Positions 4,140-18,841 of a DNA stretch of 20,000 bases are shown here, piece by piece. The stretch is from positions 58,123 through 78,122 of the IMG/VR virus record IMGVR_UViG_3300009151_000055. One strand, 5' to 3'. This stretch comes from an uncultured virus (IMG/VR IMGVR_UViG_3300009151_000055). Lineage: Duplodnaviria > Heunggongvirae > Uroviricota > Caudoviricetes. Each line of letters begins with the position of its first letter. Position 1 is the first letter of the stretch. Under the pieces are notes generated by a model. That model made no database searches. It saw only the letters and a program-made list of their open reading frames with translations, and was not told the origin of the DNA. The translations under genes and the position numbers were made by a program.

Positions 4140-6728
4140 CTATTTCTTACTCTTTGATGCTCTGTTCTTTGCATTTGTTCTAGCAATCTCTAAATCATTC
4201 TTTTGATTTTCTCTTGCCACTTGAAGCTTCTCTCTTTCTAAAGCCATCTTATCGTTTGATTGTTTATTCTTTAATTGAATGTCTTGCATTTTCAACTGAT
4301 AATCTTTTGCAGCCTTTTCCTGCTCGTGAGAAAGCTTACTCATTTCTAATACGTCTGGAACAGCGTTCTGGTCAACATCTTCTGCTGCAACATTACCATA
4401 TCCTGTTGCTGAAATAATTGCAATCTTCTCTTTAGAAAGTCTATCAAGTTGTTTTTGATAGTCATCATGAGCTATTTGCTCTTCATGTTGTTGTTGTTGT
4501 TGTGCCAATTGAGCTTGAGCTTGTTCTTGTTGAGCTTGTTGCTGCTGTTGTTGCATTTGTTGTTGTTGGTCTTGCATTTGCTCTTGTCTATCTTTCAATG
4601 TCTTAAACACCTTCTTCATTTGACGTACAGAATCTGTAGAATACAATTCTATAATGTCGTACAATGATCCACCATTCTGTATAACAGCTTGAGACAATTG
4701 TCTAATCTCTTCAAACATCTTCTTATCTTCAGGTCTATTTGTAGCAAACACTTTCAAATCTCTAAATCTCAAATCTGTACCATTCACTTCTACAAATGCT
4801 GATTCTCCTTTAGATGTAATGTATGAAATTGTTGATTGAGGCTTTTTGCTTTCTACATAGAGAGAAGCATCAATAACAGCTTGATAGAGTTGTCCTAATA
4901 CATATTCATGAGCTACAAAAAGAGGTTCTGTTTGAGAATAACTTTGTGTAAGAGCAGCATTTGTTCCTGTAGCAGATTCTGATGCAGAAATACTTCCCAT
5001 TCTCTGTTTAGACATACCTATCAATTCCCAACACTCATTCTTCATTTGTTGTGCAAGAGTGTAACGAGATTGTATTTCTTGTGTTCTTGTTAAATCAATG
5101 TCTCTGAACTGGTTGAAAGAAGATGGTGCTTTTAGATTTTCTGGAGAGTCATCAATAAATACCACTCCTCGATTTCTTGCTTCCAACTCCCACATATCAA
5201 GAGCATCTTGTGCATCTCCGTCTTTTGGAACAGGAATGTGTCTAATTGATGTTAAATAAACCTTTCCTATTTCTTTCTCAAGAAGTTTGAACAGTTGATT
5301 CATACAAACATTGTATATCACCTGAAAAGGTTTCATTAAGTCTACTAAAGACTTCGCTTCTGTGTTCTTCACTTCATGTGTAAGTCCTATAATAGGACAG
5401 TATGGAAGAAGCTTGTAAGGTTTGATGTGATAGATGTCTGGTCCTATCTTCACTCCTTCATACCATTGATTCACCCATCCCCATTCTAAAGACTGTTGTG
5501 TAGGAATGGTGTTACTTTTGTAACTCTCATCAACTAATATTGATTGTTCATTTCCCATTTCATCTAAGAATATAAGCTTCCCTATTTTCTTTTTTGAAAT
5601 CCAATAAGCTCTTACAACAACATATTTGTATCCAAATGAGGAAACATTTGATGTGAGTCCTAAAAAGTCTTTTAGTCCATCATTGTTCTCTTTCATTTCT
5701 GATTCAATAATCATTCTTGTACGAAGCACAAGAGGATCATAGGTGTCGTATTGTACAGAGTCTGTTCCAGGAGTGGCATTAGGGTTTCCCAAATTAGACT
5801 CTCTCACATTTATAAGTCCGTAGTCTTGTAAAGAACTTCTTAAATGATCTATCTCTTCTTTAGTGATGAATGGGAATGTTTCTATAATTTCAGACAATTC
5901 CATCACCATCACTGTTCCAGCAGCATACGCTCCTTGTGCTCTACCTGTTACATCTGAAATATACTTCCTATCAGGCGTAGTGAGAAACCATGTATTCTTA
6001 GGATTGCACACTTCTATATTATATCCTGTTTTAGAATTATCTTCATAGATGTGATAGAATTCTCTAGCAGTGATCATCATGTCTCTAAATGCATCCTCAC
6101 TCTTTTCTTTGAGATTGAATTCAGCTTTTGTAGCTGTAAGTATGTGATTTGCCCATTTCTCTGCAACAGATGTGTAAGAATCTAAATCTTCTTTCACCTG
6201 CTCCATTGTCATTTGATTCAACTGCTCCTCGTCTATTTCTTCTCCTCTCATTGCTGCTTTCTGCAGAATGTCTTGTTTCACTTGATTCATTACGTAGTCC
6301 TGAAGAAGCTGTGTTTTGTATTCCAACTCTTCTGCCTTGCTATCATCATCAAATGCTTTTATAGAATATGTGTTAGGTCTTTTTGAAATCTCTCCCACAA
6401 GCTCATTAACAGGTGTTGTAATAATTGAATAATGTTTAACATATGCAGGAAGTTCCAAATCACTTTGTAACATTTCTGTAAATGACTTTACATCTTGTTC
6501 TTGATAAAAATCTTCAGGACGAAGAATCCCTTTAATAAGATCATAGTTTTTAACAAATGTATCTCTATTCTTTACATATTCAGAATATGCTTTGTTTGCA
6601 AAATAGTCCATTGTGTTCTTCACCCAACTCTCATCTTGCTTCTCTTTGTCTGTTTTAAATTGGTCAGGGAATATATTAAGATAGGCATATCTAATCGTAG
6701 CATCTTTTGTATATCTAATTATAGGCAT
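4140..6728 (-). CDS. Portal protein
   Basis: 862 aa, shares one base with the TerL stop codon (TAATG coupling); long C-terminal coiled coil with a Q-rich tract, like the barrel of podophage portals. Confidence 0.85.
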   Translation of the reverse strand: MPIIRYTKDATIRYAYLNIFPDQFKTDKEKQDESWVKNTMDYFANKAYSEYVKNRDTFVKNYDLIKGILRPEDFYQEQDVKSFTEMLQSDLELPAYVKHYSIITTPVNELVGEISKRPNTYSIKAFDDDSKAEELEYKTQLLQDYVMNQVKQDILQKAAMRGEEIDEEQLNQMTMEQVKEDLDSYTSVAEKWANHILTATKAEFNLKEKSEDAFRDMMITAREFYHIYEDNSKTGYNIEVCNPKNTWFLTTPDRKYISDVTGRAQGAYAAGTVMVMELSEIIETFPFITKEEIDHLRSSLQDYGLINVRESNLGNPNATPGTDSVQYDTYDPLVLRTRMIIESEMKENNDGLKDFLGLTSNVSSFGYKYVVVRAYWISKKKIGKLIFLDEMGNEQSILVDESYKSNTIPTQQSLEWGWVNQWYEGVKIGPDIYHIKPYKLLPYCPIIGLTHEVKNTEAKSLVDLMKPFQVIYNVCMNQLFKLLEKEIGKVYLTSIRHIPVPKDGDAQDALDMWELEARNRGVVFIDDSPENLKAPSSFNQFRDIDLTRTQEIQSRYTLAQQMKNECWELIGMSKQRMGSISASESATGTNAALTQSYSQTEPLFVAHEYVLGQLYQAVIDASLYVESKKPQSTISYITSKGESAFVEVNGTDLRFRDLKVFATNRPEDKKMFEEIRQLSQAVIQNGGSLYDIIELYSTDSVRQMKKVFKTLKDRQEQMQDQQQQMQQQQQQAQQEQAQAQLAQQQQQHEEQIAHDDYQKQLDRLSKEKIAIISATGYGNVAAEDVDQNAVPDVLEMSKLSHEQEKAAKDYQLKMQDIQLKNKQSNDKMALEREKLQVARENQKNDLEIARTNAKNRASKSKK

Positions 6729-8755
6729 TATGTAAACAGTTTTTGTTTTTGTTTATTGTAAAAAAGAGAACTTGATTCAGAAAATAATTTATTGTTTCTT
6801 TTTCCTGAATACAAAGATTTCACTCTATCATCTCCACTTCCTCCAATTCTTCCAAATATAGGATCCATTTTGAGTGCTTGTGCTATTGCTAATTCCGCAG
6901 CAATGATTCTATCAAAGTTACCATTATCGTTATATTGAATAATCTCTTCTAGAAGAACGGGATCAAGTATTTTATTCACCCCAAACACCTCTCTAATCAC
7001 AGAGCCATTCTCATCAGTTTCTTTAACAATAGATTCTTCCATATATTTCTTCAGACATGCATGTAAATAATCAATAATCTTTTGACTACTTCTATGTATT
7101 CCATATTCTCGCTTCACTGTTGTGTTAGGAACAATCTCCATGAGCCATTGAGGCTGCTTTTCTAGATATTGTGCATCTCCTTTTGACTTCATGTATTCTA
7201 TAAAAGAAATATCATCATTCTCACAAAGGGTGCGAGCATTGTAATATTTAATTAGCATTCTAGCTTGTTCTTCCCATGTTTCTTTCTTATCAGGACGTGC
7301 ACAATAAGAAGCTACAAACATGTCTTGGTATTTTTCATCCATCAAGCTGTGCATTCTCTTATATATGTACACACTACCTAGAGAAGAACTGTATGCTGAT
7401 TGTCCCTGTCTGTAGGGATCCACTCCTGCTACATACAATCCGTATGGAGGATTTTCTATAGGAAATTCATATATAACTACAGGAGCATCTTTTAAATCAG
7501 AATTCTTTAGAGGAAAGTTTGAAATAGGTAGTTTGTCTGTAAACTCGTGTGATATTTTACCCTCATCTTGGAAAAGAATAACAGGAGTGCCTGTTCTCAA
7601 TTGTTGTAACAATCTACTCTTTTGTCTCTTGGCAGATTCAATATCAAATATGTTTGTATCCTCATTTAAAAATATATCATCCACTTCTTGAGGATAGTAC
7701 ATCTTTTCTTTTAGATAGGCAATTCTATCTCCAGCTTTCTTCAGACGTTCAAGATTACTTACAGTGAGAGCATTTGCTTTTTCTTCATTGCTTACAAGCA
7801 TTTTAACTTGGTGTAGTTCTGAAGAAAGAGGAACGTTTAGGAAAGCACCAAGAGAAGAGTCTTCTTTGGCTTCCATTCTATACTTGTTAGAAATAAATAG
7901 CCCATGTATTCTAGACGTGTCTTTTGAATTATTGTACGTAAGGAAGTTAAAATTGTCTACATCAAACATAAGACTCTTGGCATCCATAAATCTTTTCATG
8001 TCACCACCTGTTCCTGTAAGAATTGGACTACATCCCCAACCAAAGGGTGTTGTAAATCCTGGAATAGCAGCTTGAAGTCCTCTAAGAAAGGATCCTTTTC
8101 CTATCTCATCTATAATAAGCTTTCTGGGTTTTGTACCTGCAATAGCTTCCTCATTATTACCTTCATCAAGGTTACGAATAAGAATAGAGGAATAAGGAAT
8201 CCTTTCTCCTGATTTAGTTTTAATTCCTAGCGTCACTTGATTCTTCCAATTATCTTCTATTCTTTGCCACCTCCAAGCTTCAGGAATGAAATTCAATCCC
8301 TTGTCTATCTTATCTGTAATAAGCTTTATATCAGGGCTATTTAAGCCTGCAATTACGTTCTGTGAGTTTTCATCAAACGTTGCTCCCCAAGCTATGTAGC
8401 TTGATTCTAAAACTGATTTTGCCAAACGTCTTATGCCTAAAATAACAAGTCCTTTTCTTTCGTTCTGTGCCCTATCAATTTCATTTGTTATCACCCATTC
8501 ATTATCTCTCAAATAGGGATTGGCATATTTTTGTGAAATTCTACCACGTTCATCTATTATATCCACCTCTGTGTTCCAGAAGTTGAGGTGCCAATATAAA
8601 AATGGGTTTATGTACACACCATCCATCATTGCTCCGTTCAGACACAATTCTTTGTGATGGTTGAAAAACTCTCTATGTTCTTCAGAGGATTTATCTGGAA
8701 TTCTTTTTTGATTGATGTACCAATCTTTATAATCTATATTTTTGAGATTGATCAT
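6728..8755 (-). CDS. terL: Terminase large subunit
   Basis: Walker A-like GIRRLAKS, Walker B LIIDEIG, motif III-like TGTGG, RNase H-like nuclease YVAGVDP and C-terminal NFDRIIA. Confidence 0.92.
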   Translation of the reverse strand: MINLKNIDYKDWYINQKRIPDKSSEEHREFFNHHKELCLNGAMMDGVYINPFLYWHLNFWNTEVDIIDERGRISQKYANPYLRDNEWVITNEIDRAQNERKGLVILGIRRLAKSVLESSYIAWGATFDENSQNVIAGLNSPDIKLITDKIDKGLNFIPEAWRWQRIEDNWKNQVTLGIKTKSGERIPYSSILIRNLDEGNNEEAIAGTKPRKLIIDEIGKGSFLRGLQAAIPGFTTPFGWGCSPILTGTGGDMKRFMDAKSLMFDVDNFNFLTYNNSKDTSRIHGLFISNKYRMEAKEDSSLGAFLNVPLSSELHQVKMLVSNEEKANALTVSNLERLKKAGDRIAYLKEKMYYPQEVDDIFLNEDTNIFDIESAKRQKSRLLQQLRTGTPVILFQDEGKISHEFTDKLPISNFPLKNSDLKDAPVVIYEFPIENPPYGLYVAGVDPYRQGQSAYSSSLGSVYIYKRMHSLMDEKYQDMFVASYCARPDKKETWEEQARMLIKYYNARTLCENDDISFIEYMKSKGDAQYLEKQPQWLMEIVPNTTVKREYGIHRSSQKIIDYLHACLKKYMEESIVKETDENGSVIREVFGVNKILDPVLLEEIIQYNDNGNFDRIIAAELAIAQALKMDPIFGRIGGSGDDRVKSLYSGKRNNKLFSESSSLFYNKQKQKLFT

Positions 8756-9084
8756 TTTCTATTTTTAAGAAAGTCTTCAGCCATAGAAGACAATTCTCCC
8801 TTACCTCTCACTTCCACTTTTGCTTCTTCTTTTTCTCTAAGTTTATCCACCACTTCTAATAAAGCTAAATAGTTCTTCATTGTCTCTTGAACAAACTTCC
8901 CCTGAGCCTCTATAGAAGCAATCACCATTGGGAGCATTCCTCCTTTTGATGTTGGTTTCCATTCAATCCTGTCCTTCAACTCGTGAAGAGGATTGGCATT
9001 AACATATGCTTTCCATGACGTAAGTTGTTCCTCCGCCCACAGAAGTTCTGTATTAATGTATGTAGTTTTTTTAATAGTCGCCAT
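8752..9084 (-). CDS. Hypothetical helical protein, candidate terminase small subunit
   Basis: 110 aa ORF overlapping the TerL start (ATGA coupling); function inferred from position only. Confidence 0.45.
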   Translation of the reverse strand: MATIKKTTYINTELLWAEEQLTSWKAYVNANPLHELKDRIEWKPTSKGGMLPMVIASIEAQGKFVQETMKNYLALLEVVDKLREKEEAKVEVRGKGELSSMAEDFLKNRK

Positions 9085-9340
9085 AGTCTTCTTGGTTAAA
9101 TAAATTCAATCCATCCTTTACAATATTGTCAAGGGCATCATCTGAGACAATGTTCATATCTAATTCACTCTTGTATTTCTGTAGAGCAAAAAGCATTTCA
9201 CTGTCTCTCATTCCCCACACGTCTCCACAATCATCTAAAGCTGTTGCTATGTGTCTTCCCATGCCATAAGAGGGATGGAGAGTTTTTAGCTCTTTCAGCA
9301 CATCAATGATTTCACTATATTCGTTCTTCTTCTTTGCCAT
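9071..9340 (-). CDS. Hypothetical protein
   Basis: 89 aa ORF overlapping the next gene in a tightly packed operon. Confidence 0.7.
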   Translation of the reverse strand: MAKKKNEYSEIIDVLKELKTLHPSYGMGRHIATALDDCGDVWGMRDSEMLFALQKYKSELDMNIVSDDALDNIVKDGLNLFNQEDYGDY

Positions 9341-9342
9341 TT

Positions 9343-9519
9343 CTAAATTATTATTCCACTGCTTTGTGCTGTTATCTTCTTCACTTCCTGTTCCACCACA
9401 CCCAACAATCTCTGTATTTGATTATTTGCAATGTCTTGTGTTGTCACATTAATTCCTGGCGTAGCACATATTGCTGCCAACTTCTCTATAAAATAAAATG
9501 CGTCTTGTATTGTGTTCAT
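9343..9519 (-). CDS. Small hypothetical protein (58 aa, not in ORF track)
   Basis: Manual translation MNTIQDAFYFIEKLAAICATPGINVTTQDIANNQIQRLLGVVEQEVKKITAQSSGIII*; fills the gap between 9516..9716 (ATGA overlap) and 9071..9340. Confidence 0.7.
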   Translation of the reverse strand: MNTIQDAFYFIEKLAAICATPGINVTTQDIANNQIQRLLGVVEQEVKKITAQSSGIII

Positions 9520-9716
9520 GCTAAATCTGTTATATCAATTTCAATTATTTCTTCGTCATCATCATCGTCTTCAGAAGGTGTTATCATCAATGTATCCTCA
9601 TCGTCATGAAGCGTTGCTGTAATATCAATATACCTAACCTCTGTTGTTTCATACACTTCTTTCAAAGCTGTTAGCAATGCCAACAATTCCACTTTCCTTA
9701 TTGTCATATTGTTCAT
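9516..9716 (-). CDS. Small acidic hypothetical protein
   Basis: 66 aa ORF with ATGA overlaps on both sides. Confidence 0.65.
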   Translation of the reverse strand: MNNMTIRKVELLALLTALKEVYETTEVRYIDITATLHDDEDTLMITPSEDDDDDEEIIEIDITDLA

Positions 9717-10015
9717 TTCAAATCATTTAATTCGTCATCAATACTTTCATCTGTTGTAACAGCATCCCATAGAGACAAAGGACAGCTACAAGAAAGACAT
9801 TTTGTTTTAGCAGAAAGCGTACATCCACAATTTGTACAATGTTCATCAGGACGCAACGTGTTATATTCCCCTGTCTTCTTTCTGTTCTCAGAAAACCATT
9901 CACACTTGTTACATATATTCATTCTTTCTATAGAAGTGTTATTAATCACTTCTTTCATTTCATGTGGAGGAATAATGTGATTTCTCCATCCTTCTAAAAT
10001 TTGTTTAAAGCTCAT
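9713..10015 (-). CDS. Cys-rich putative zinc-binding protein (DUF6171-like)
   Basis: ERMNICNKC...CTNCGCTLSAKTKCLSCSCPLSLW fits the R..IC..C / C..CGC....K / CP...W pattern common in phages. Confidence 0.65.
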   Translation of the reverse strand: MSFKQILEGWRNHIIPPHEMKEVINNTSIERMNICNKCEWFSENRKKTGEYNTLRPDEHCTNCGCTLSAKTKCLSCSCPLSLWDAVTTDESIDDELNDLK

Positions 10016-10361
10016 TGGTTTTATTATTTAATCTGTCTAATTCTTCCTGTAGAAAAACAATTCTTGCTTCTATTCTTTTTATGAGAATTTCTGAAGGACT
10101 GTCTTCTATTAACGCTCTCTTATAATTCCTTATTTTATTATTAAGAGCTTCTATCCTTTTCTTAGCCTTTGGCAAATTAAAATAAAACTTCCCAAAGCCA
10201 GAAATCTCTATGCTATTGTTTGTTTTCATAGCATCGTTAGCACTCTGAAACTGATGTGTAATAACACTGTTAATAACACTCTCACTTCTTAGAGAAGACA
10301 TAGCTTGTAAACGTACAAGGTATTCCTTAATCGACATAGAAGAGGGTCTATTCATGTACAA
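10005..10361 (-). CDS. HU/IHF-like DNA-binding protein
   Basis: SIEISGFGKF matches the HU/IHF (I)xGFGxF signature after a helix; crAss-like phages are known to encode IHF homologues. Confidence 0.65.
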   Translation of the reverse strand: MYMNRPSSMSIKEYLVRLQAMSSLRSESVINSVITHQFQSANDAMKTNNSIEISGFGKFYFNLPKAKKRIEALNNKIRNYKRALIEDSPSEILIKRIEARIVFLQEELDRLNNKTNEL

Positions 10362-10701
10362 GATTTATGTTCAAAGAAATGTTTTTATTAAAATCCAAAA
10401 GAATGGCAGAATGTAATTTTATCCTATTTCCTTCCTTATACAAAATCTTCATCTTCTTAAGCTTAGAAATAATATTATTCATCGTAGCCTCTGAACTGTT
10501 ATACTTCTTACAAAACTCCTCCTTATTCACTGTATAGGAAATATTCCCTTTAACAGCAAAAAATGATATCAATTGTATTTCTCTCTCAGACAACTTAATG
10601 TCATTCATAACAGAAATGAATGTATAATACTTTTCTGCTATTGAATAAACATCAGGAAGTGTTTTCCTCAATGTCTGTAATATCGTTTTCCTATTTTCCA
10701 T
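10348..10701 (-). CDS. Winged helix-turn-helix DNA-binding protein
   Basis: LSEREIQL...EEFCKKYNSSEATMNNIISKLKKMKILYKEG has a wHTH pattern; first gene of the minus-strand operon. Confidence 0.55.
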   Translation of the reverse strand: MENRKTILQTLRKTLPDVYSIAEKYYTFISVMNDIKLSEREIQLISFFAVKGNISYTVNKEEFCKKYNSSEATMNNIISKLKKMKILYKEGNRIKLHSAILLDFNKNISLNINLVHE

Positions 10702-10713
10702 ATTTAATTCCTA

Positions 10714-10744
10714 CAAAGATAGAAACATTTTCGTGTAAACTAAA
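10714..10744 (-). promoter_or_regulatory. Bacteroidota-type promoter driving the morphogenesis operon
   Basis: Minus strand TTTA-N19-TATCTTTG (exact TAnnTTTG -7 box) 12 nt upstream of the ATG at 10701. Confidence 0.6.
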
Positions 10745-10971
10745 AACTCCTCTAAACCACATAAGCTATAAAATCCTAAAAATTCTATGGTTTCTATAGA
10801 TCTATTCCCGCCCTCCCCCCTTCAAAGGTAAGGGGAAATATAAATACAAAAAAAAAAATTTTTTTTTCTAGCCCCCCCCCCTCCTTTATGTAGATGGGAG
10901 AGGAGAGTACTTCCAATATCAACCCCTCCTTTGATTGACGGGGTGCAACATACCTCCCTGTGATTTGTTTT

Positions 10972-11334
10972 ATGATTACATTAGAAGGACTTGAAATCGA
11001 ACAGGTACAATACCGTGCTACACTCATTCACCAGGAACTACGAAAGGACGGTAAGCCAAATAGCAAAGCAGGACAAGCATATCACTTGTTCAACCTTGCT
11101 AATGGTACAAAGTTTAACAGTGACAGTCAGGCGTTCTTGGATGCCTACAACGATGGCTCACTGTTCACACTGACATTGAAACCCACCGCTGAAGGACTTG
11201 CAGAAGTCAGCGTGTGGAAGACCAGAAAGCAAATCGAAGCATTGTACTCCAACGAAGAGTACAAGCGGAAGGTGCGTAAGCCAGCGGCTGAGACGGTAAC
11301 AGTACCGTTGAACACATTAGTGGCAGGTTCTTAA
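10972..11334 (+). CDS. Hypothetical protein, first gene of the plus-strand block
   Basis: ORF track 10960..11334; ATG at 10972 is the likely start; visibly more GC-rich than its neighbours. Confidence 0.7.
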   Translation: MITLEGLEIEQVQYRATLIHQELRKDGKPNSKAGQAYHLFNLANGTKFNSDSQAFLDAYNDGSLFTLTLKPTAEGLAEVSVWKTRKQIEALYSNEEYKRKVRKPAAETVTVPLNTLVAGS

Positions 11335-11342
11335 GCCACTGC

Positions 11343-11830
11343 CCCTTTGGGGTATATATTATATTCATCACGAATGTGTGTTGAATAATTAATTATATAT
11401 ATACTCCAAAGGGTTTTATATTGTTCTATAGAAAGAATATATTTAATGCATCAATCTCATTTCCCAAGGATGAGCAATTGTAATATATTATCCTAAAGAC
11501 CATAAATGGAACGAGGAATAATTTAATGTCTTGTACAAGACGTATTACAATTGAATGCAGAGGGGATATATACGTTTTGTTTAACGTTTGAAAAGAAAAG
11601 GCGGCTTTTTTCAACTTATCGTTAAACAAAACATGTATTTATATAGGAGAAAGGGATGTATAGGGTGACCAATAACCCTTAACACATCACATTCTCTTAT
11701 ATACATTATGTACAATTGCCGTACATAATGAATATTTTAATGGCAATAGCACACAAACGGTAGATACGTTGATGGTTAATTGTGTGTACGTATAAGAACA
11801 ACATCGCTTATACATTCTTTTGTAACCTCT
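11343..11830 (+). ncRNA. Putative structured non-coding region (series of long stems)
   Basis: 17-bp stem 11343-59/11397-413, 11-bp 11475-85/11543-53, 13-bp 11574-86/11620-32, 10-bp 11642-51/11692-701 and 10-bp 11704-13/11721-30. Confidence 0.45.
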
Positions 11831-11846
11831 TTAATTTATATATATC

Positions 11847-12104
11847 ATGAGTTTTAACAACGTAGTGTCTGTAAGAGTAAGCAATTTCATAGCAGAAGAT
11901 GGTGCTACAGGAAGTTTTAGTGTATTCTTTATGAACGGGCTAGAGATAGCTCGTGAATTTGTTAACCACTACGAGTTCGAGGTGGTTGACAAAACTGTAA
12001 GAGAAGCTACTCCTGAAGATATGGCTCTCATGAATTCCATTCTTGAAAAGAATGAGAATTTTAGATGGAGGGACTTTATGTCCCACTTTGGAGACCAGTG
12101 GTAA
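11847..12104 (+). CDS. Hypothetical protein
   Basis: 85 aa ORF with AT-rich leader, followed by a long hairpin. Confidence 0.7.
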   Translation: MSFNNVVSVRVSNFIAEDGATGSFSVFFMNGLEIAREFVNHYEFEVVDKTVREATPEDMALMNSILEKNENFRWRDFMSHFGDQW

Positions 12105-12110
12105 ATTATT

Positions 12111-12155
12111 CCTGTTCTCATAGAGATTCGTTTCTCTATGGGAATGGGTTGTTGT
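12111..12155 (+). terminator. 16-bp hairpin (terminator or processing stem)
   Basis: CCTGTTCTCATAGAGA/TCTCTATGGGAATGGG with G-U pairs on the + strand, followed by TTGTTGTT. Confidence 0.5.
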
Positions 12156-12158
12156 TAT

Positions 12159-12345
12159 ATGTTCTTCTGAAGAATGAACATTTTGATGTCTAATACATTT
12201 AGGCTATTGTAGGTGGAAACCTTCTTAGATGGATATTTGCGTTCACAAAAGCGTACGCCCAGAGAGATATACCCTCTCGCAAGTGTAAGATTTCCTAGCA
12301 AATATTCATTGAAATCAGTCTCTGTAGCTTAAAGGAGGAACAGAG
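12159..12345 (+). ncRNA. Putative multi-stem structured RNA
   Basis: AGGT-GGAA-ACCT hairpin; 11-bp TGGATATTTGC/GCAAATATTCA enclosing GAGAG/CTCTC; CTCTGT/ACAGAG. Confidence 0.45.
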
Positions 12346-12379
12346 CAAACTTTTAGTAACCAATTAAATCAATATAGTT

Positions 12380-12748
12380 ATGTCTAAGATTTTTAATGGC
12401 ACACCACATGCCATAAATGTGGTTTCAGGTTCTGTTTTCACTCCAGCAATACGCAAGTATGTTGGAGGTGACGTAGTGCTAAGTATTCCTTCTACAGGAG
12501 TGCTTAGTGCTAAAATATCTACAATAGATTTGCCATCTATTGCTGATATCCCTGTATTTGGCAAGAGTTTCTCAGGAGTAGACTCATTACCAGACGGTTT
12601 TGATGTTTACATTGTTTCTGCTCTATACGCTTCAGCTGCTAAGGCTGCAGGTGTAGATTGCAGCAAATTGTATACAGTGGCTGATCCTGTATACACTCCT
12701 GATGGCAATAGTTTTATAGGATGTAGAGGCATTTGCCCTGCATTCTAA
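12380..12748 (+). CDS. Conserved phage hypothetical protein (N.TPH...YIVS...G..IGC family)
   Basis: NGTPHAINV, YIVSALYA and DPVYTPDGNSFIGCRG match a widespread phage protein family of unknown function. Confidence 0.75.
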   Translation: MSKIFNGTPHAINVVSGSVFTPAIRKYVGGDVVLSIPSTGVLSAKISTIDLPSIADIPVFGKSFSGVDSLPDGFDVYIVSALYASAAKAAGVDCSKLYTVADPVYTPDGNSFIGCRGICPAF

Positions 12749-12785
12749 TCAGCCTGTCCTAAGCATGACATAAAACTGCTTATTC

Positions 12786-13085
12786 TCCTTAGGGCACAGG
12801 TCGACGGGAATTAAAACTACGCCCCAGTTTATACGTTCTGAAATACAAAAACGTATTTGATTTGTAAAGATGAGATATGATAGGGACATTCAGCTCATCA
12901 ACAATACAGGGTTTAGGTCCATTACATCGTAATTTAGCTTTTACCTGTATTAAACTAAATAGGCGGCTCATAGCGTGGTGCTGAGCTGTACAACAACAAG
13001 AATACCGCTTGAAAAGAGGAAACTCACTTGTTGGTGAAGGATAAAAAACGTTAGATGCATTGATATATCATGCTAAAACTAACGT
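12786..13085 (+). ncRNA. Putative large multibranched RNA
   Basis: No credible ORF; nested stems closed by TCCTT/AAGGA, a GAAA tetraloop hairpin and potential pseudoknots (see findings). Confidence 0.5.
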
Positions 13086-13178
13086 ATAAAAAACCTTTAT
13101 AAATCCTATTTTTTATTATTTTTTCATTTTTTTTTTGTGAAAGATCTTCACAACACAAACCATTATGTTATAAAAAAA

Positions 13179-13481
13179 CAACTTCCTCTGCAAGATTTGA
13201 CCGTCTTGTGGAGATGAATAATTAAGAAGTTGCTGCAATTTACATATCCTTAATTGGATGTGTGTATTATCAGGCTAAATGAATCTTGGTCAATAAACAG
13301 ATAATTGTTTATTAGATTTATGATGCCTATTGCAGCCAGTTGAGTAAAAAACTGTAAAATTTACTACTGTTTAAATCTGTTCAGTTACCACAGATTAGTT
13401 GATTGATTGAGATTATCCTCTTGATATTAGCGATATGCAAAGATTGGAATGTTCTATAGAGTTCGATTCTCTCACTTTGCA
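13179..13481 (+). ncRNA. Putative pseudoknot-rich RNA ending in a tRNA-like acceptor/T-arm module
   Basis: Multiple stems, two to three pseudoknots, and a 3' AGAG-TTCGATT-CTCT T-arm inside TGCAAAG/CTTTGCA. Confidence 0.5.
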
Positions 13482-13530
13482 CTTATTTTAATTAAAACCT
13501 TTAGGTGTATAGGTTAACCTTACCATTAGT

Positions 13531-13755
13531 ATGAACACAGATAAGAAATATTTTGTAAAAAATGCTGATGCAGCAGCATCGTTTGGAAACGCGAAGCCTG
13601 CAATAAAGGATATATTTATTTGCTGTTCACAGTGTGATGGAGCACCGCTCTACACACAACACGGCTTCACTGTTGTTACGAGCTTGTCTCGTACACAACT
13701 TAAAAAAATGGGTATTTTGGTGTCAAGTTCTAACGACACCTACACCTTGCAATAA
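13531..13755 (+). CDS. Hypothetical protein
   Basis: 74 aa ORF with ATG start, CxxC and TAATAA stop. Confidence 0.6.
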   Translation: MNTDKKYFVKNADAAASFGNAKPAIKDIFICCSQCDGAPLYTQHGFTVVTSLSRTQLKKMGILVSSSNDTYTLQ

Positions 13756-14052
13756 TATTTATACGCATGGAGAGTGGCGTGCTGATGTGTACAGCCTAAA
13801 CAAACATAAATTAAGGTTGCTCTGTCTCCATTTCCTATAACAAAATCTTAAAGATGAATTGAAAAGACATTCATAATGAGACTAGGTTTGTAATAATAAT
13901 GGAGAAAGTTTGTATACAAAAGCAAACGACATGCGTATATATTATTTTTCAACTGATTTTGAGGTTTCCCTGAACGCACAGAAATGTGTTAGTAGGGGAC
14001 TTCTATTTTCTTTTTTTAAATTATTTTTTATTCATCCTCAAATATATATTTT

Positions 14053-14409
14053 ATGGCAGCTTACGGGTATAGTTCAGCGTTGAAAGCAGCAGGTGCTACG
14101 GTAATAGATTTCAAAGCCTCAGGTGATTATCAAGGCACTTGGGGTGCTGTTGTTGACTATAATGGTCAACGCAGCGTGGTGATAGGAGCTTATGGCTCTT
14201 GTGACCATTGTGATCCATTTCAGGCAAGATTTGGCTACGATGGTGGTAGTCCAGAAGAAATGAAAGCATTTGGAGAATCATATCTCCACAATCCTTATTC
14301 AAAGGAAGATGTGGAGAGGCAAATCGCATTCTTGTCTGAGGACGAGGATGATTGGTTTGATAGAGAAACATTGGAGCTCTATAAATGGGCATTAACATTT
14401 TTCAATTAA
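14053..14409 (+). CDS. Hypothetical phage protein
   Basis: 118 aa; GDYQGTW...YGSCDHCD motif seen in phage hypothetical proteins. Confidence 0.75.
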   Translation: MAAYGYSSALKAAGATVIDFKASGDYQGTWGAVVDYNGQRSVVIGAYGSCDHCDPFQARFGYDGGSPEEMKAFGESYLHNPYSKEDVERQIAFLSEDEDDWFDRETLELYKWALTFFN

Positions 14410-14420
14410 TTCTCTCTTAT

Positions 14421-14485
14421 AGAGAAAATGTTTGCGAAAGGTGCTGAATAACACCACTTATTGCAAATGTTTTCTCTTTTTTATT
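14421..14485 (+). terminator. Long hairpin plus T-run (putative terminator)
   Basis: AGAGAAAATGTTTGCGA...TTGCAAATGTTTTCTCT followed by T-rich sequence. Confidence 0.55.
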
Positions 14486-14516
14486 TTGTATTTTAAACCT
14501 TCACATATTAATTAAA

Positions 14517-14708
14517 ATGAAAAAAGCAGCATTGTTTTTGTTAGCAATCATCACACCGTTCTTGTTGGTGTGGATAGCGTTTGTATGCACAGGATGTGCA
14601 TTTGTTCCCAAAGAAGTGTTCAACGCAGGACAGTTTTGGGGAATGTCCATTATTTATTGGGTGATAGTTTGCCCTATATTGTTAATTGTGATAAATGATA
14701 CAATATGA
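14517..14708 (+). CDS. Small membrane protein (2 predicted TM segments)
   Basis: 63 aa with two hydrophobic stretches. Confidence 0.65.
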   Translation: MKKAALFLLAIITPFLLVWIAFVCTGCAFVPKEVFNAGQFWGMSIIYWVIVCPILLIVINDTI

Positions 14709-14911
14709 AAAATTATTATTTAATATCTGCTATAGTGATGTTGATGGCATCTATAGCGTGGATATTTTTAGGCATTTATTTGCTCACACCATCAAAAGTA
14801 AACCTCGCTATCATTAGCTTAGTGTTCACAGGAGGACTGATGACCTCTTATTCTTTGTATACAAGTTATCAAGACTGTAAAAAGTCTTATGATGACTTAT
14901 TTAAAAAGTAA
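14705..14911 (+). CDS. Small membrane protein (2 predicted TM segments)
   Basis: 68 aa, ATGA overlap, two hydrophobic stretches. Confidence 0.65.
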   Translation: MKNYYLISAIVMLMASIAWIFLGIYLLTPSKVNLAIISLVFTGGLMTSYSLYTSYQDCKKSYDDLFKK

Positions 14912-14927
14912 CCATCAAACCAATAAT

Positions 14928-15065
14928 ATGAAGACAATTACATTGTCAGCCAAGGAGTTCTACAACTTCAAAAAGTTAGCCAATTTCTATTTTGATTTCT
15001 GGATTTTGTCTGGAAATATAATAGTGACAGCTTCTATAGAAGAACTAGAGCTCTTAGGCTATTAA
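14928..15065 (+). CDS. Small hypothetical protein (45 aa, not in ORF track)
   Basis: MKTITLSAKEFYNFKKLANFYFDFWILSGNIIVTASIEELELLGY*, preceded by an A-rich AAACCAATAAT leader. Confidence 0.6.
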   Translation: MKTITLSAKEFYNFKKLANFYFDFWILSGNIIVTASIEELELLGY

Positions 15066-15158
15066 CCTCTCACAATATATGTATCTAGACTTTATATCTA
15101 TATACATATATTTTCCTTTGGTTAGTTCATTTTATATTTAAAAACGTATAATATTTTT

Positions 15159-15362
15159 ATGAAAGAAGTAAAGATGACAATGGAATTTGTAATCGATGTA
15201 GACGATAACATTGTAGACATCGAAGAGTTATGTGATAGAGTGGTAGTTTGTTTTCGTAATGAAGACAAATTAGGAATAGAAACCTTTCTGCCTCAAGACG
15301 ATGGTTTGATGGTAATAGGATATATATCCACTACAATTGACAACATAACTGAATTAGAATGA
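15159..15362 (+). CDS. Hypothetical protein
   Basis: 67 aa acidic ORF coupled to the next gene. Confidence 0.65.
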   Translation: MKEVKMTMEFVIDVDDNIVDIEELCDRVVVCFRNEDKLGIETFLPQDDGLMVIGYISTTIDNITELE

Positions 15363-15739
15363 CAAACAAATTAGTTTACACCATTGTGCCTGAGAGTACA
15401 TATAATGGTGGGTATTTAGCAGGCTATTATAATGATGACGAAGTGGTTAGACCTTCGTATTGTTATTTACATGGTAAGTTGGAAACCTTAATTGGATATG
15501 ATATATTTAGCATGCTTCGTTCTGAATTAGAAGCTGATCAAATAGTTGACAATAGAGTGTCTGATAAATTTGAAGAAGGCATACACTCCTGTATATGTAT
15601 GGGTAAACCATGCACATTCTTTAGATGGAAAACTAATGAACATCATAAGAGTTTTGCAGGACTTGTTGTATTAAATTCAGACACACGTGCGTTGGAATAT
15701 GCACAAGAATGCTACGATAACAAAACAAGTAATATTTAA
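15359..15739 (+). CDS. Hypothetical protein
   Basis: 126 aa ORF with ATGA overlap. Confidence 0.7.
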   Translation: MTNKLVYTIVPESTYNGGYLAGYYNDDEVVRPSYCYLHGKLETLIGYDIFSMLRSELEADQIVDNRVSDKFEEGIHSCICMGKPCTFFRWKTNEHHKSFAGLVVLNSDTRALEYAQECYDNKTSNI

Positions 15740-15749
15740 ACCAAATACA

Positions 15750-16247
15750 ATGGAAGCAGTGTTAATATTTCAAAGCTATGAACTTCCTTCTTGGCAGGAA
15801 ATAGAGCCAGGGATGATGTTTACAAGTCTTGATAAATATTCTGATTACGTTAGAATCAGGACAATTTCTCAAGAACAGAGTCTTCGTCTTGATAAGGAAT
15901 TGTTCATTCGAGAGAATGGACATCCAGTAAAGCCATATATATGTGCAATGGATGGCACAATCCTTGCTCGACCAGAAGAAATAGGTTGGTGGGATTGTGG
16001 AGAAGATTGCGACTCCTATACAGAAATAGGAGAAAAGGAATTCAATCTGATTCTTGAGAACGAAGGACTCATTGATGTAGAAACAACATACGATGACGAA
16101 GAAGGTTATCAGTTGTTGTACATGGATGGCAAAGTGATAATTTCTGTTCTTCAGGAGTACGAAGAATCTGAAGAAGAATACAGTGATGAAATATCTAATC
16201 ATTTTAAAACTAACGACGATGATAATGACGAGTCAGAAGAGTGGTAA
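15750..16247 (+). CDS. Hypothetical acidic protein
   Basis: ORF track 15687..16247; ATG 15750 (MEAVLIF) after AAACCAAATACA is the likelier start. Confidence 0.7.
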   Translation: MEAVLIFQSYELPSWQEIEPGMMFTSLDKYSDYVRIRTISQEQSLRLDKELFIRENGHPVKPYICAMDGTILARPEEIGWWDCGEDCDSYTEIGEKEFNLILENEGLIDVETTYDDEEGYQLLYMDGKVIISVLQEYEESEEEYSDEISNHFKTNDDDNDESEEW

Positions 16248-16386
16248 TACACTTACACGTCCTCCAGTGATCAATTATGAACCTCTTACATTCCAAGAAT
16301 GGTGCGAGGAGTTTAATGTATCTCTATTGTTTAACAAAATACCAACACACATAGAACATGAGTACAGTATATTGGAAAATGCGTAA
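16225..16386 (+). CDS. Small hypothetical protein
   Basis: ORF track 16183..16386, probable start at ATG 16225; bridges two genes. Confidence 0.45.
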   Translation: MTSQKSGNTLTRPPVINYEPLTFQEWCEEFNVSLLFNKIPTHIEHEYSILENA

Positions 16387-16612
16387 TGGATCTTTGATTG
16401 ATGTTGACGAAATGGATATCAATCATCTGCGTAATACGCTAAAAATGATAATAAGGGCTTCACAAGCCCAAGTTCGCAATTCGCAAATTGCAAACAAACC
16501 TGCTCCTAAACTTGAGCTTAAAGGTGAAATGTCTCAATTGTTTAATGATGATTTTCCTGGAGATGATGATGAGTATAATCCTTACGAAGACTATAAAGCG
16601 TTTCTTTTATAA
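16358..16612 (+). CDS. Conserved phage hypothetical protein
   Basis: WKMRNGSLIDVDEMDINHLRNTLKMI matches the common phage motif W...G..I....M...HL.N. Confidence 0.7.
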   Translation: MSTVYWKMRNGSLIDVDEMDINHLRNTLKMIIRASQAQVRNSQIANKPAPKLELKGEMSQLFNDDFPGDDDEYNPYEDYKAFLL

Positions 16613-16627
16613 CCAAAAAATAGATAT

Positions 16628-16894
16628 ATGATACTTACGTACGGATTCCATCCTGTCACTAAGGATGAGACAAAAGAGAAAATTGTTAAATATCTAGAGG
16701 CTATTGATATCTCTTCTAAAATCATTGAAGGAGGAATCAATGGCTCTTTAGAACTAGAAGTGGAAGATGGCATTCATCCTGATAACATCCTAGAACTAGG
16801 GTCAATACTTGGGATGCATGAGACCATTTTCTCTTGGGAAGATGCTGAAAATGAAGACTTCCCATTCGAAGGAGATGACGATGCTGATGTATAA
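16628..16894 (+). CDS. Hypothetical acidic protein
   Basis: 88 aa ORF ending at a terminator. Confidence 0.65.
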   Translation: MILTYGFHPVTKDETKEKIVKYLEAIDISSKIIEGGINGSLELEVEDGIHPDNILELGSILGMHETIFSWEDAENEDFPFEGDDDADV

Positions 16895-16896
16895 AT

Positions 16897-16931
16897 AAAA
16901 AAAGGGAGAATAAATTAATATTCTCCCTTTT
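16897..16931. terminator. Bidirectional intrinsic terminator
   Basis: AAAAGGGAGAATA-AATTAA-TATTCTCCCTTTT, flanked by A and T runs, between convergent genes. Confidence 0.75.
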
Positions 16932-16946
16932 CATTAAGAGATTGAA

Positions 16947-17120
16947 TTAGGCTGTTTTCACCACTTTTGAAGCAACACTCCAAATAGCACCAATTAATGT
17001 GCTAATTGCACCAATTGCTTCTACAGAAGTTGCTTCATCAATTACACCTTTGGTGATGAGAAATCCACCAACGAATGTCAATACGTGTCTAACAAGTCCT
17101 AAAATTTGATCTTTGTTCAT
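16947..17120 (-). CDS. Putative holin (Pam3-gp28-like small 2-TM protein), not in ORF track
   Basis: MNKDQILGLVRHVLTFVGGFLITKGVIDEATSVEAIGAISTLIGAIWSVASKVVKTA*; RH.LT..GG.L...G and terminal WS motifs; has its own promoter and terminator. Confidence 0.7.
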   Translation of the reverse strand: MNKDQILGLVRHVLTFVGGFLITKGVIDEATSVEAIGAISTLIGAIWSVASKVVKTA

Positions 17121-17137
17121 AGTGAAAATATTTTAAA

Positions 17138-17168
17138 CAAATATACAAAAATATTTTATGTACACAAA
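17138..17168 (-). promoter_or_regulatory. Bacteroidota sigma70 promoter for the holin-like gene
   Basis: Minus strand TTTG-N19-TATATTTG, a perfect consensus. Confidence 0.7.
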
Positions 17169-17448
17169 TGGTGTAGAAGAAATAAAAATAGAATATGAGT
17201 TATTTCCTGAAAAATATGCAACAATTTACGTAGATGTAAATTGGATGCACCAAAGAGAAAAGATGTACACATCTAATGGAGACATTGGATGGGATGGAAC
17301 ATCATCTTGGGAAATTAGTCATATATCGTGGGGAGATATTCCTCACATGTTCAGAGATGAAAAAAAAGTGGAAGAAGCTCTGAAGAAGAAAATATCACAC
17401 ATTTCTTCTGATGGAATAGTCTTTAATCCCTTGTTAAAGAAACACTAA
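17158..17448 (+). CDS. Hypothetical protein
   Basis: 96 aa ORF. Confidence 0.65.
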   Translation: MYTNGVEEIKIEYELFPEKYATIYVDVNWMHQREKMYTSNGDIGWDGTSSWEISHISWGDIPHMFRDEKKVEEALKKKISHISSDGIVFNPLLKKH

Positions 17449-17461
17449 TTTTGTATATTTG
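17431..17461 (+). promoter_or_regulatory. Bacteroidota sigma70 promoter
   Basis: TTG-N20-TATATTTG; shares the 13-mer TTTTGTATATTTG with the holin promoter. Confidence 0.6.
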
Positions 17462-17475
17462 CATAAACCAAATAT

Positions 17476-17850
17476 ATGAATAAGTTTATATTAGTGAGAA
17501 TAGCCATCATAACAGCATTGATAACACAAGTGAGTCATGCTGCATTCGTGTTTAAGAGCATTTCTAAAACAAACGGATGGGTGGATGAGATTATTGCATA
17601 TGTATTCGCTGTTTCTCTAGAACTGTCAATATACATATTCACAATAGAACAAAAGAGAAGCGTAGCAACATTCTTTGCAATAATCTCATTTCTCATTAAT
17701 CTATTATACTATTGGAATTTCAATCAATTTGATTTTGCGTTTTATGCCAGCTTGTTGATTTCGTTCACAATTCCTACAACCATTTGGAATTACAGCGATC
17801 TTATAAACAATGAGCCAAGAAAACGTCCATACATTAGAAAAACAGAATAA
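17476..17850 (+). CDS. Multi-pass membrane protein (about 4 TM segments)
   Basis: 124 aa with four hydrophobic segments and a basic C-terminal tail. Confidence 0.7.
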   Translation: MNKFILVRIAIITALITQVSHAAFVFKSISKTNGWVDEIIAYVFAVSLELSIYIFTIEQKRSVATFFAIISFLINLLYYWNFNQFDFAFYASLLISFTIPTTIWNYSDLINNEPRKRPYIRKTE

Positions 17851-17972
17851 AAATATTGAGAGAGTGCATGAACACGAGGGCTATGTTAATTCTAGATGAA
17901 TGCATAGGTAGTAAGTAGACACTTTGGGAGGACTAGCTATCCTCCCCTCTCACTTTTTTAAAAAACAATAAA

Positions 17973-18110
17973 ATGAGAAAAACACCAAGTCTTATTAAGC
18001 AAATCATGGAGAAATCTAAAAAAGATCCATGGTATGTAAAACTAAAAAGAAGAATAAGATTAAAATTATTCATTTTTAAATGTTCTATAAAGCAATGGTG
18101 GTGGAAATAA
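17973..18110 (+). CDS. Small basic protein (45 aa, not in ORF track)
   Basis: MRKTPSLIKQIMEKSKKDPWYVKLKRRIRLKLFIFKCSIKQWWWK* with an A-rich leader. Confidence 0.45.
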   Translation: MRKTPSLIKQIMEKSKKDPWYVKLKRRIRLKLFIFKCSIKQWWWK

Positions 18111-18113
18111 ATT

Positions 18114-18258
18114 GATGGAGTGGCGGAAGGTGTTAGGGGTGTCCTCTAACGTGGTAGACGCTATTATCTGAGAGGGTGCTTGTGAGTAGTATGCAAAACT
18201 ACATAGATACAAGTGTTATAGAAGCACCACATTGTGGGTTCAAATCCCACCTCCATCA
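18114..18258 (+). tRNA. Aberrant, enlarged tRNA-like element (Leu-type D arm, expanded anticodon domain)
   Basis: Acceptor GATGGAG/CTCCATC+A, D arm TGGCGGAA...TGGTAGACGC, T arm GTGGG-TTCAAAT-CCCAC; 145 nt. Confidence 0.7.
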
Positions 18259-18348
18259 CATAGTTATTTGGGTGCTTATCCAGTAACTTTTGATAATGTG
18301 TCCCAGTCTGTTGTGGATCGCAACCACTCAGAACATCTCTTATCAAGT

Positions 18349-18447
18349 AATGTAGTGGCGGAATTGGTATACGCAGCTCTATAAACGGGTGGAAGTAATA
18401 ACATTGAAAACAGCTTCTAAATGCAGGTTCGAGTCCTGCCTACATTG
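18349..18447 (+). tRNA. tRNA-Leu-like element with a non-canonical anticodon arm (possibly TAA)
   Basis: Acceptor AATGTAG/CTACATT, D arm TGGCGGAATTGGTATACGC, long variable arm GAAGT/GCTTC, T arm GCAGG-TTCGAGT-CCTGC. Confidence 0.7.
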
Positions 18448-18547
18448 CAGACTTTCATCTAAGGCTACACTGAGAACTGATGAAACTTGTTGGTAGCTGT
18501 AGACTACACGAACAAGGGTGATATAAGAATCCCACTTACCTATCAAT

Positions 18548-18574
18548 GAGGAGTACCAAAGCTCCTCTCTTTTT
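18548..18574 (+). terminator. Intrinsic terminator closing the tRNA-like cluster
   Basis: GAGGAG-TACCAAAG-CTCCTC-TCTTTTT. Confidence 0.65.
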
Positions 18575-18593
18575 AAACTTTTAAAACAGAAAT

Positions 18594-18797: not shown

Positions 18798-18802
18798 AAA
18801 AT

Positions 18803-18828
18803 AAAGGGAGTGTAAAAGCTCCCTTTTT
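18803..18828 (+). terminator. Intrinsic terminator
   Basis: AAAGGGAG-TGTAAAAG-CTCCCTTTTT. Confidence 0.7.
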
Positions 18829-18841
18829 AAATTTTAAAATT

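Follow-up and report, generated by a model that had tools for sequence, protein, structure and literature searches.

A conserved structured RNA with twister-like architecture in the gene-poor start of the plus-strand arm of a crAss-like phage genome

The genome of an uncultured freshwater crAss-like phage contains a 2.2-kb region that is almost free of genes, at positions 11335 to 13530 of the 20,000-nucleotide (nt) stretch analyzed here (the window, to which all coordinates refer), and the question it raises is what this DNA encodes. The window corresponds to the final 20 kb of a 78-kb contig in IMG/VR (record IMGVR_UViG_3300009151_000055). An identical sequence is found across the region in a second contig (107,671 bp), whose two ends share an overlap of about 140 bp (window positions 10732 to 10871); the genome is therefore a circle or a terminally redundant molecule of about 107.5 kb, which we reconstructed as 107,532 bp. 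On this sequence, we built a greedy map of open reading frames (ORFs) that start with ATG and encode at least 50 amino acids (aa). The coding share was 36.9% in 11335 to 13530 (here called the island) compared with 93.7% genome-wide, and no other 2,196-nt segment of the genome was less coding (percentile 0.0005). All six of the genome's largest gaps fall within 10702 to 18593. Only two plus-strand ORFs of more than 60 aa, at 11847 to 12104 (85 aa) and 12380 to 12748 (122 aa), are present in the island, with a total of 627 nt, and reading TAG as glutamine or TGA as tryptophan (translation table 4) opened no new frames in the gaps. An earlier note on this DNA had called the island poor in ORFs, and the coding map bears this out: the ORF desert is real and extreme. 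The main finding within it is a conserved plus-strand RNA at 11437 to 11571, a candidate ribozyme of twister-like architecture.

Sensitive blastn searches against 78 related loci, defined as the surroundings of large terminases (TerL) that are 75 to 87% identical to that of this phage, revealed short conserved noncoding blocks in otherwise unrelated DNA. The blocks around TTCCCAAGG and GCAGAGGG were always paired, 64 to 152 nt apart, and in plus orientation. We aligned 19 distinct sequences with MAFFT (alignment A2), built a covariance model from this alignment (R1), and fitted 65 distinct sequences to the model (alignment A3). Three helices were found in A2, with 95% of cells paired and double changes in 12 of the 23 pairs; none of 500 shuffles scored as high, and slid controls paired at 30 to 55%. 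In A3, 98% of cells were paired and 170 cells carried double changes, again with no shuffle out of 500 as high. R1 matched 27 of the 78 TerL-related loci and scored the instance in the window at 105 bits (11435 to 11570). The earlier note had also argued that G-U pairs favor the plus strand as RNA, which holds for this motif (19 GU versus 6 AC cells in A3 and 16 versus 7 in A2). Positions 11437 to 11571 thus form a real, conserved, plus-strand structured RNA.

The motif is widespread among phages. A 15-base pattern matched at least 119 IMG/VR stretches, 80 of which were fetched, and R1 confirmed 61 of these (67 matches). It also occurred in phages whose terminases are only 29 to 33% identical to that of this phage, and its orientation was always sense. 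It is single-copy in the genome of this phage; three complete genomes carried it once each, a fourth genome (98% complete) lacked it, and it was absent from a 95%-identical relative, L336, in which the segment 11449 to 11574 is missing. Five IMG/VR loci had the motif in tandem. Two copies within a few hundred bases were seen in some phages (L106, L157, L138, L114, L098, and L040), and some second copies were degenerate, such as that at 140 to 270 of L114, which is devoid of the hairpin termed P4 below. Bacterial and archaeal homologues were sought and dismissed: R1 confirmed none of 80 pattern loci, and the 120 pattern matches are near chance level (15 bases in 596 Gb; our own estimate was roughly 1,000).

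We also considered a hidden peptide. An AUG-led frame exists in the motif; 1-nt junction indels (CAUU versus CACAA or CAUAA) break any frame, and nonconservative changes that preserve pairing likewise rule out a coding function. We found no fixed upstream sequence motif, and hence no promoter belonging to the element, and no terminator of its own either: of 63 instances, 10 had a terminator-like site within 120 nt on the downstream side and 14 on the upstream side. Neighboring genes were not conserved, and those downstream came from many unrelated families. In the TerL-related set the next ORF followed 29 to 426 nt downstream, and in many instances an ATG-initiated ORF started 29 to 50 nt downstream, after an A-rich spacer. 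A link to tRNA genes was rejected, since ARAGORN called no tRNAs in the window or in 60 motif loci and Rfam placed a tRNA beside the motif in 1 of 20 scanned loci; the suggestion that the island belongs with a tRNA-like cluster is not supported by these counts.

The architecture of the motif resembles that of twister ribozymes. According to published descriptions, twisters have essential stems P1, P2, and P4 and optional stems P0, P3, and P5, with a P2 of 4 bp and a P1 that is dispensable. The same texts place cleavage at N^A beside P1, with an A as general acid and a G as general base, and describe two pseudoknots, one through a two-nucleotide “NC” and the second through “GRG,” with the P4/L4 consensus CCGGTCCCAAGCCCGG. 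They report P3 in 78% of twisters and P5 in about 1%, and they call the auxiliary stems “highly variable.” For comparison, we used three matches to the Rfam model RF03160 from 150 Clostridia genomes (L350, L351, and L352; 43 to 55 bits, E up to 3e-8). Two of them, L350 and L352, read U-AA-UGCA-GC-(P3)-CGG-UCACAAGC-CCG-...-UGCA-GA-GUG-(P1'), and the phage family reads U-AA-UGCA-CC-AUU-(P4, 5 bp)-UUCCCAAGG-(P4')-(P5 with insert)-A(G/A)-UGCA-GA-GGG-(P1').

On the plus strand of the window, P1 pairs 11437 to 11443 with 11565 to 11571 (7 bp) and is followed by the cleavage site predicted from twister correspondence, U11444^A11445, and by A11446. P2 (UGCA; 4 bp) pairs 11447 to 11450 with 11556 to 11559, and its 5' strand leads into the “NC” dinucleotide, here UC (11451 to 11452), and the L2 letters AAU. 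P4 (11456 to 11460 with 11470 to 11474; 5 bp) is closed by the invariant loop L4, UUCCCAAGG (11461 to 11469). P5 (11475 to 11483 with 11545 to 11553) encloses a variable insert. AA (11554 to 11555) precedes the 3' strand of P2, and G11560, A11561, and then GGG (11562 to 11564) follow it. On the basis of covariation, R1, column conservation, and comparison with the Clostridial matches and the published descriptors, the element is a twister-like candidate of type P1 with a P5 stem. It shares with twister the order of elements, the N^AA strand, a 4-bp P2 of UGCA (as in the two Clostridial matches), the “NC,” a P4 loop of the form U-CCC-AAG-N, a stem at the optional P5 position, G-A followed by a triplet complementary to the loop, and a weak P1.

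Column conservation in A3 follows this scheme. Before P2, the letters U, A, and A occupied 55, 62, and 61 of the 65 sequences; the “NC” positions were C in 56 and C in 60; and after the 3' strand of P2 came G in 59, A in 62, and GGG in 61 to 62. The same cleavage-strand and G-A letters stand in L350 and L352. L4 was invariant in all 63 sequences with letters there, and it agrees with the twister L4 consensus U-CCC-AAG-C save for one extra U and a G as the last letter. In A3, which was fitted to the model, 96.8% of cells in P2 were paired with 3 of its 4 pairs doubly changed, and 98.1% in P4 with all 5 pairs doubly changed; pairing of P2 and P4 in the independent MAFFT alignment A2 was 85 to 96%. 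P5 is a 9-bp helix with 98.8% of cells paired and 4 pairs doubly changed, and the inserts it encloses range from 3 to 177 nt. The putative pseudoknot CCC:GGG was complementary in 99.4% of cells, both sides being invariant within the family, and that of CC (or UC) with GG was compatible in 98.4%, with one-sided changes only. Between families, both vary together: the L4 triplet and its complement are CAC:GUG in L350 and L352, CCG:CGG in L351, and CCC:GGG in the phages, and the “N” of “NC” changes with the last loop letter (dinucleotides GC:GC in L350 and L352, AC:GU in L351, and CC:GG in the phages).

Several observations weigh against placing the motif among the twisters. Rfam searches at E up to 1 to 10 returned no twister, twister-sister, or other ribozyme match for the window, a 301-nt cut-out, 20 other instances, or 3 instances with a short P5; RF03160 had no match on the whole contig at E up to 10; and R1 does not match the Clostridial twisters, all three of which themselves score below the Rfam gathering score of 67.2 bits. 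Since the Rfam models and R1 both miss across families, the assignment rests on manual element-by-element correspondence. Being invariant or variable on one side, the two pseudoknots are not proven by covariation within the family. P1 in a fixed register paired in only 51.8% of cells; in favor of the assignment, the flanks in a free register formed a mean of 2.84 contiguous pairs compared with 2.23 ± 0.13 in 200 re-pairings. The “N” of “NC” (column 17) and the nucleotide immediately 5' of the second P2 strand change together (CG 53, UA 7), which a fifth P2 pair fits better than the canonical 4-bp P2. L4 has 9 nt instead of 8, and P4 is 5 bp long. Sequence conservation at the base of P5 also contrasts with the variable auxiliary stems of twisters. 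The phage motif further differs in having P5 and no P3 and in a pseudoknot dinucleotide of CC:GG instead of GC:GC. The missing P3 and the insert in P5 may explain why Rfam misses it; as for other known RNA families, Rfam gave only chance microRNA and small nucleolar RNA (snoRNA) matches for the motif and the window.

Twister-sister is a second point of comparison. Published descriptions mention a multistem junction, which the phage motif shares, and a P4 loop sequence said to resemble that of twister; they also describe twister-sister as free of pseudoknots and as cleaving the opposite strand of an internal loop, whereas in the phage motif both the N^AA strand and the strands of the twister pseudoknots are retained, and Rfam gave no twister-sister match for it. 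Weighing these points together, we consider 11437 to 11571 to be probably a variant of the twister self-cleaving ribozyme that cuts an early read-through transcript, and we treat it as a candidate, twister-like ribozyme variant rather than as a proven member of the class. A review notes that bacterial twisters and hammerheads lie near phage genes and have been proposed to process polycistronic mRNAs; the phage motif is likewise intergenic, phage associated, and sporadic. We found no description of the element in literature on twister with bacteriophage, metagenome, or crAss, or on structured RNAs of crAss-like phages, with the limit that preprint supplements, which we did not see, could list such sequences.

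How such an element might act depends on how the region is transcribed. The −7 motif of host-type promoters has the consensus TANNTTTG. It is absent from the intergenic plus strand of the island, and the only plus-strand match in 10830 to 13883 lies inside ORF 12380-12748; nor is it a repeated element, as it is not enriched in the window (35 found versus 26.4 ± 5.1). Because the intergenic plus strand of the island carries no host-type promoter and the motif none of its own, the island would probably be read through in one long transcript as the leader and intergenic part of the plus arm, presumably the early arm. The RNA would then fold into P2, P4, and P5, the loop UUCCCAAGG would dock via two pseudoknots (CCC to GGG at 11562 to 11564, and GG to the “NC” dinucleotide that follows P2), and self-cleavage would occur between U11444 and A11445. 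Cleavage would part the upstream message, comprising ORF 10960-11334 and ending in a hairpin at 11339 to 11417, from a downstream RNA that begins with a 5'-OH and a compact ribozyme fold, and the two halves could thereby gain different stability or translation. The data show the conserved structure of the motif, its strand, its distribution, and its elementwise correspondence to twister; transcription, cleavage, and the effect on expression we infer.

The remainder of the island was examined for folding with z-scores in 120-nt windows on both strands, each against 40 dinucleotide shuffles. Strong signals were obtained at 11321 to 11440 (−4.3 / −7.9), at 11521 to 11760 (−3.5 to −6.8 on both strands), at 12041 to 12200, and at 13121 to 13360, and some windows in 13001 to 13360 scored below −3. 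Folding was weak in 12105 to 12379 (mean z, −1.4) and over most of 12749 to 13530 (mean z, −1.5; 4 of 17 windows below −2.5). On the plus strand, 17 of 52 of these short windows in the island scored below −2.5 (mean z, −2.12), compared with 16 of 61 in the remainder of the plus arm (mean z, −1.64) and 1 of 40 in the late, minus-strand arm (mean z, −0.2). Over 9000 to 16000, the sense strand of the whole plus-strand arm is more stably folded than its shuffles (mean z about −1.6 to −2.1), in contrast to the late arm. The top plus-strand values of the region lie inside coding sequence, at 12401 to 12560 (−8.1, in ORF 12380-12748) and 11881 to 12000 (−5.9, in ORF 11847-12104). Hairpins in 12395 to 12570 are present in five diverged homologues with a few double changes, and the covariation term is about zero. 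Terminator-like hairpins in 10000 to 20000 are about fourfold over-represented (16 found versus 4.1 ± 1.6 expected).

These values temper what the earlier note had claimed for the island as a whole. Its claim of long stems in nearly every intergenic stretch holds at 11321 to 11440, 11521 to 11760, 12041 to 12200, and 13121 to 13360, and the folding signal is weak in 12105 to 12379 and in most of 12749 to 13530, so that “stems everywhere” is overstated; the sliding-window check it had proposed gave strong scores in part of the island only, with structure that is not special to the island. Its array of structured RNAs at the start of the early arm shrinks to one conserved plus-strand RNA, the motif at 11437 to 11571, as just one RNA supported by covariation was found. 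Its idea of sponges, decoys, or a processing scaffold is not supported either: the motif is best read as an RNA-processing self-cleaving ribozyme, and the other stems look terminator-like or are a sequence-conserved inverted repeat.

Of these other stems, a long imperfect plus-strand hairpin with a T-run lies at 11339 to 11417, directly after the stop codon of ORF 10960-11334. It is terminator-like, contains inverted repeat I1 (arms 11343 to 11368 and 11388 to 11413, 81% complementary) and a terminator-like site at 11340 to 11354, and is 85.6% identical in L336, with changes mainly in the apical part. The palindrome termed hairpin C (11568 to 11638, with no strand assigned) has 12-nt arms TTTTGTTTAACG and CGTTAAACAAAA around a spacer of about 33 nt and coincides with inverted repeat I6 (19-nt arms, 89% complementary; z −3.5 to −5.7 on both strands). 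Its arm pattern was present in 13 IMG/VR stretches, 10 of them outside the three contigs that represent this phage and L336. The flanks differ among the stretches and often include GGGTGGG repeats of the strand-switch region, and the arms are kept by sequence, with no compensatory change, which suggests that hairpin C may be a protein-binding inverted repeat or a terminator. Among L338 to L349, TTTTGTTTAACG...CGTTAAACAAAA stands directly beside TATATA-GGGTGGG...GGGTGGG in several phages; in the window, hairpin C is 700 bases from the strand-switch repeats and next to the ribozyme-like motif. A third hairpin, on the plus strand at 11699 to 11735 (I11; 15-nt arms, 93% complementary, 7-nt loop, followed by an AT-rich tail), contains a terminator-like site at 11704 to 11730, is identical in L336, and lies in the intergenic stretch upstream of ORF 11847-12104. 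Seven nucleotides after the stop codon of that ORF follows a terminator-like plus-strand hairpin at 12111 to 12148, with 16 pairs (6 GC), the tail TTGTTGTTAT, and a z of about −3. A tRNA-like minihelix at about 13436 to 13482 was discarded (z = −0.47, no Rfam match).

The two ORFs of the island are on the plus strand. ORF 11847-12104 has three homologues of 84 to 87 aa with 75 to 81% identity and no Pfam or PHROG match; it is 82.9% identical to L336 at the nucleotide level, with mismatches by codon phase of 12/11/21. ORF 12380-12748 matches phrog_30542 (E = 1.1e-6) and is 74.8% identical to L336 at the nucleotide level (mismatch phases 27/17/49). Its homologues on L330 and L331 share 76 to 78% aa identity, and nucleotide similarity to them is limited to 12362 to 12753; the homology ends at the start and stop codons, and the flanks are unrelated elsewhere. 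Searches of Pfam, PHROGs, and the ESM Atlas for ORF functions returned only viral hypothetical proteins. Both ORFs are real genes, and they behave as exchangeable cassettes.

The intergenic DNA differs less between the two phages. On the plus strand, alignment with L336 showed 97.8% identity for 12105 to 12379 where both have letters, besides 87 gap columns, and this stretch had no homology in the 78 TerL-related loci; the 782 nt of 12749 to 13530 are 95 to 98% identical up to 13483 and gave no Rfam match at E up to 10 save chance snoRNA matches. An insertion at 13484 to 13755 (272 nt) that carries ORF 13531-13755 is absent from L336, and 13484 to 13530 belong to it. We found no evidence of function for these approximately 1.1 kb, whose conservation is limited to one 95%-identical relative and whose folding signal is weak. 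L336 is 95.6% identical over 9002 to 10946 and forms a mosaic over 10946 to 14494, in which intergenic blocks of 95 to 98% identity alternate with small ORFs of 75 to 83% identity and third-position bias, and in which ORF 10960-11334 is replaced. The mosaic suggests allele or cassette exchange at gene boundaries. The minus-arm genes up to 10701 are present in 72 to 75 of the 78 TerL-related loci, and the first five plus-strand ORFs (10960 to 14409) had no homologue there; the start of the plus arm is therefore hypervariable. T4-type phages reportedly carry mobile regulatory cassettes, promoter-early stem-loops, in hyperplastic regions. The arrangement here is similar in its early small genes each followed by a stem-loop, its hypervariable gene content, and its exchange at gene ends, but in the island we found no repeated promoter-stem-loop unit and, on its intergenic plus strand, no host-type promoter motif, and its intergenic stretches are far longer.

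Several other readings of the motif and of the island have to be set against these data. An experimental parallel exists for the general idea of early RNAs put forward in the earlier note: in the crAss-like phage phi14:2, two long early-arm intergenic regions are already more strongly transcribed than most genes at the earliest time point, and their RNAs remain abundant through infection; the preprint assigns them no function (bioRxiv 10.1101/2020.03.07.982082). An unannotated gap of 1.7 kb is present at 2905 to 4601 of the phi14:2 record, and both genomes have long ORF-free intergenic regions at the start of a rightward arm, early in phi14:2 and presumably early here. Those abundant RNAs would suit a noncatalytic structured RNA, excised from or stable in the early transcript, that binds a phage or host protein or acts as a decoy, as would the failure of every ribozyme model to match the motif and its invariant 9-nt loop and conserved helix base CAGUUGUAA / UUACAACUG, which are typical of protein-binding sites. 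We regard this as quite unlikely, because each of the invariant nucleotides has its counterpart in the twister core and pseudoknot strands, which in an unrelated RNA would be a large coincidence. The motif moreover has no promoter or terminator of its own and is dispensable between close relatives, and R1 found nothing in positions 1 to 9000 of phi14:2 with filters off (best E = 0.5); blastn against GenBank phages gave no match for the motif or for 10700 to 13900. A cis-acting leader, riboswitch-like or a processive antitermination RNA for reading through hairpins, would account for one copy per genome near the start of the plus arm and always in sense, for the ATG-initiated ORFs that often follow after an A-rich spacer, and for the excess of terminator-like hairpins. 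It is very improbable given that the downstream genes are unrelated and at varying distance, that no expression platform is found (terminator-like sites are no more frequent downstream, 10/63, than upstream, 14/63), and that the twister-like core is left unexplained.

For the island as a whole, the lowest coding density of the genome, the intergenic blocks that are better conserved in L336 than the ORFs, the windows with z below −3 at 13001 to 13360, and the phi14:2 precedent would be in keeping with several further functional noncoding RNAs, highly transcribed, of which the ribozyme is one module or the processing device. Such an array is unlikely: an identity of 95 to 98% is the baseline between the two phages (95.6% over 9002 to 10946) and so reveals no extra constraint, there is no homology in the 78 related loci or GenBank phages and no Rfam match, folding is weak in 12105 to 12379 and most of 12749 to 13530, and ORF 12380-12748 sits between nonconserved flanks in the other contigs that carry it. 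Alternatively, the stems could be features of the DNA, such as binding palindromes or recombination scaffolds of a hypervariable region by a genome end or strand switch, with no function as RNA. Hairpin C, with arms conserved in sequence without compensation and often beside strand-switch repeats in other phages, fits this description, as do the like scores of both strands at 11521 to 11760, the cassette-like ORF replacement with indels at ORF boundaries, and the clustering of contig ends at the strand switch. We consider this explanation rather unlikely; it does not fit 11437 to 11571, with its three covarying helices, one of them long-range across a 3- to 177-nt insert, its excess of GU over AC cells (19 versus 6), its fixed orientation, and its asymmetric invariant single strands. 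More speculatively, the island could be an RNA-processing hub of the early transcript, in which a member of a previously unrecognized, widespread twister branch, with the conserved P5 base and hypervariable insert as a second functional domain (for example, for binding protein or RNA), cuts the read-through transcript and releases long, stable noncoding RNAs from 11445 to 11846, 12105 to 12379, and 12749 to 13530 that accumulate as the early RNAs of phi14:2 do and act on the host; we give this elaboration little chance of being correct.

If the candidate twister variant at 11437 to 11571 does cleave, a large clade missed by current models, with at least 119 IMG/VR pattern matches and spanning phages with terminases only about 30% identical, would be added to the twister class. 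The early transcript of crAss-like phages would then carry a self-cleaving ribozyme at a defined position, a testable case for the role of genomic ribozymes in phages, and there would be a concrete handle on the abundant early noncoding RNAs of phi14:2. Descriptors used in ribozyme searches would gain from its unusual features, namely P5 in place of P3, a base of P5 that is conserved, and altered letters in the pseudoknots. Should cleavage fail, the motif would still be a well-supported new family of structured RNA.

Two loci (L003 and L004) are 100% identical to the window, whose sequence occurs in freshwater metagenome sequencing runs. The minus-strand arm (41 to 10701) encodes a major head protein, a portal, and a large terminase, all of crAss-like type by PHROGs, and the plus-strand arm begins at 10960. 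In the strand-switch region between them (10798 to 10938), two blocks, CCCGCCCTCCCCCC...AAGGGGA and TATGTAGATGGGAGAGGAGAGTACTTCCAA...CCCCTCC, with poly-A/T and poly-C runs between them, are kept in many relatives; they are single-copy, with no repeat elsewhere in the genome. Many related contigs terminate within a few kilobases of this region, which could mark the end of the genome or serve as an origin or a divergent promoter. TATCTTTG at 10714 to 10721 on the minus strand matches the Bacteroidota −7 promoter motif just upstream of the first minus-strand gene (start, 10701), and the start of the plus arm had no match to it.

Farther along the plus strand, Rfam found tRNA matches at 18114 to 18258 and 18349 to 18447 (32 and 39 bits) with normal acceptor, D, and T arms and with insertions of about 26 to 70 nt around the anticodon region. 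A similar 100-nt match lies on the minus strand of L089 (207 to 306), 4 nt downstream of the ribozyme-like motif. ARAGORN calls none of the three, which might be phage tRNAs that contain introns or are unusual in some other way.

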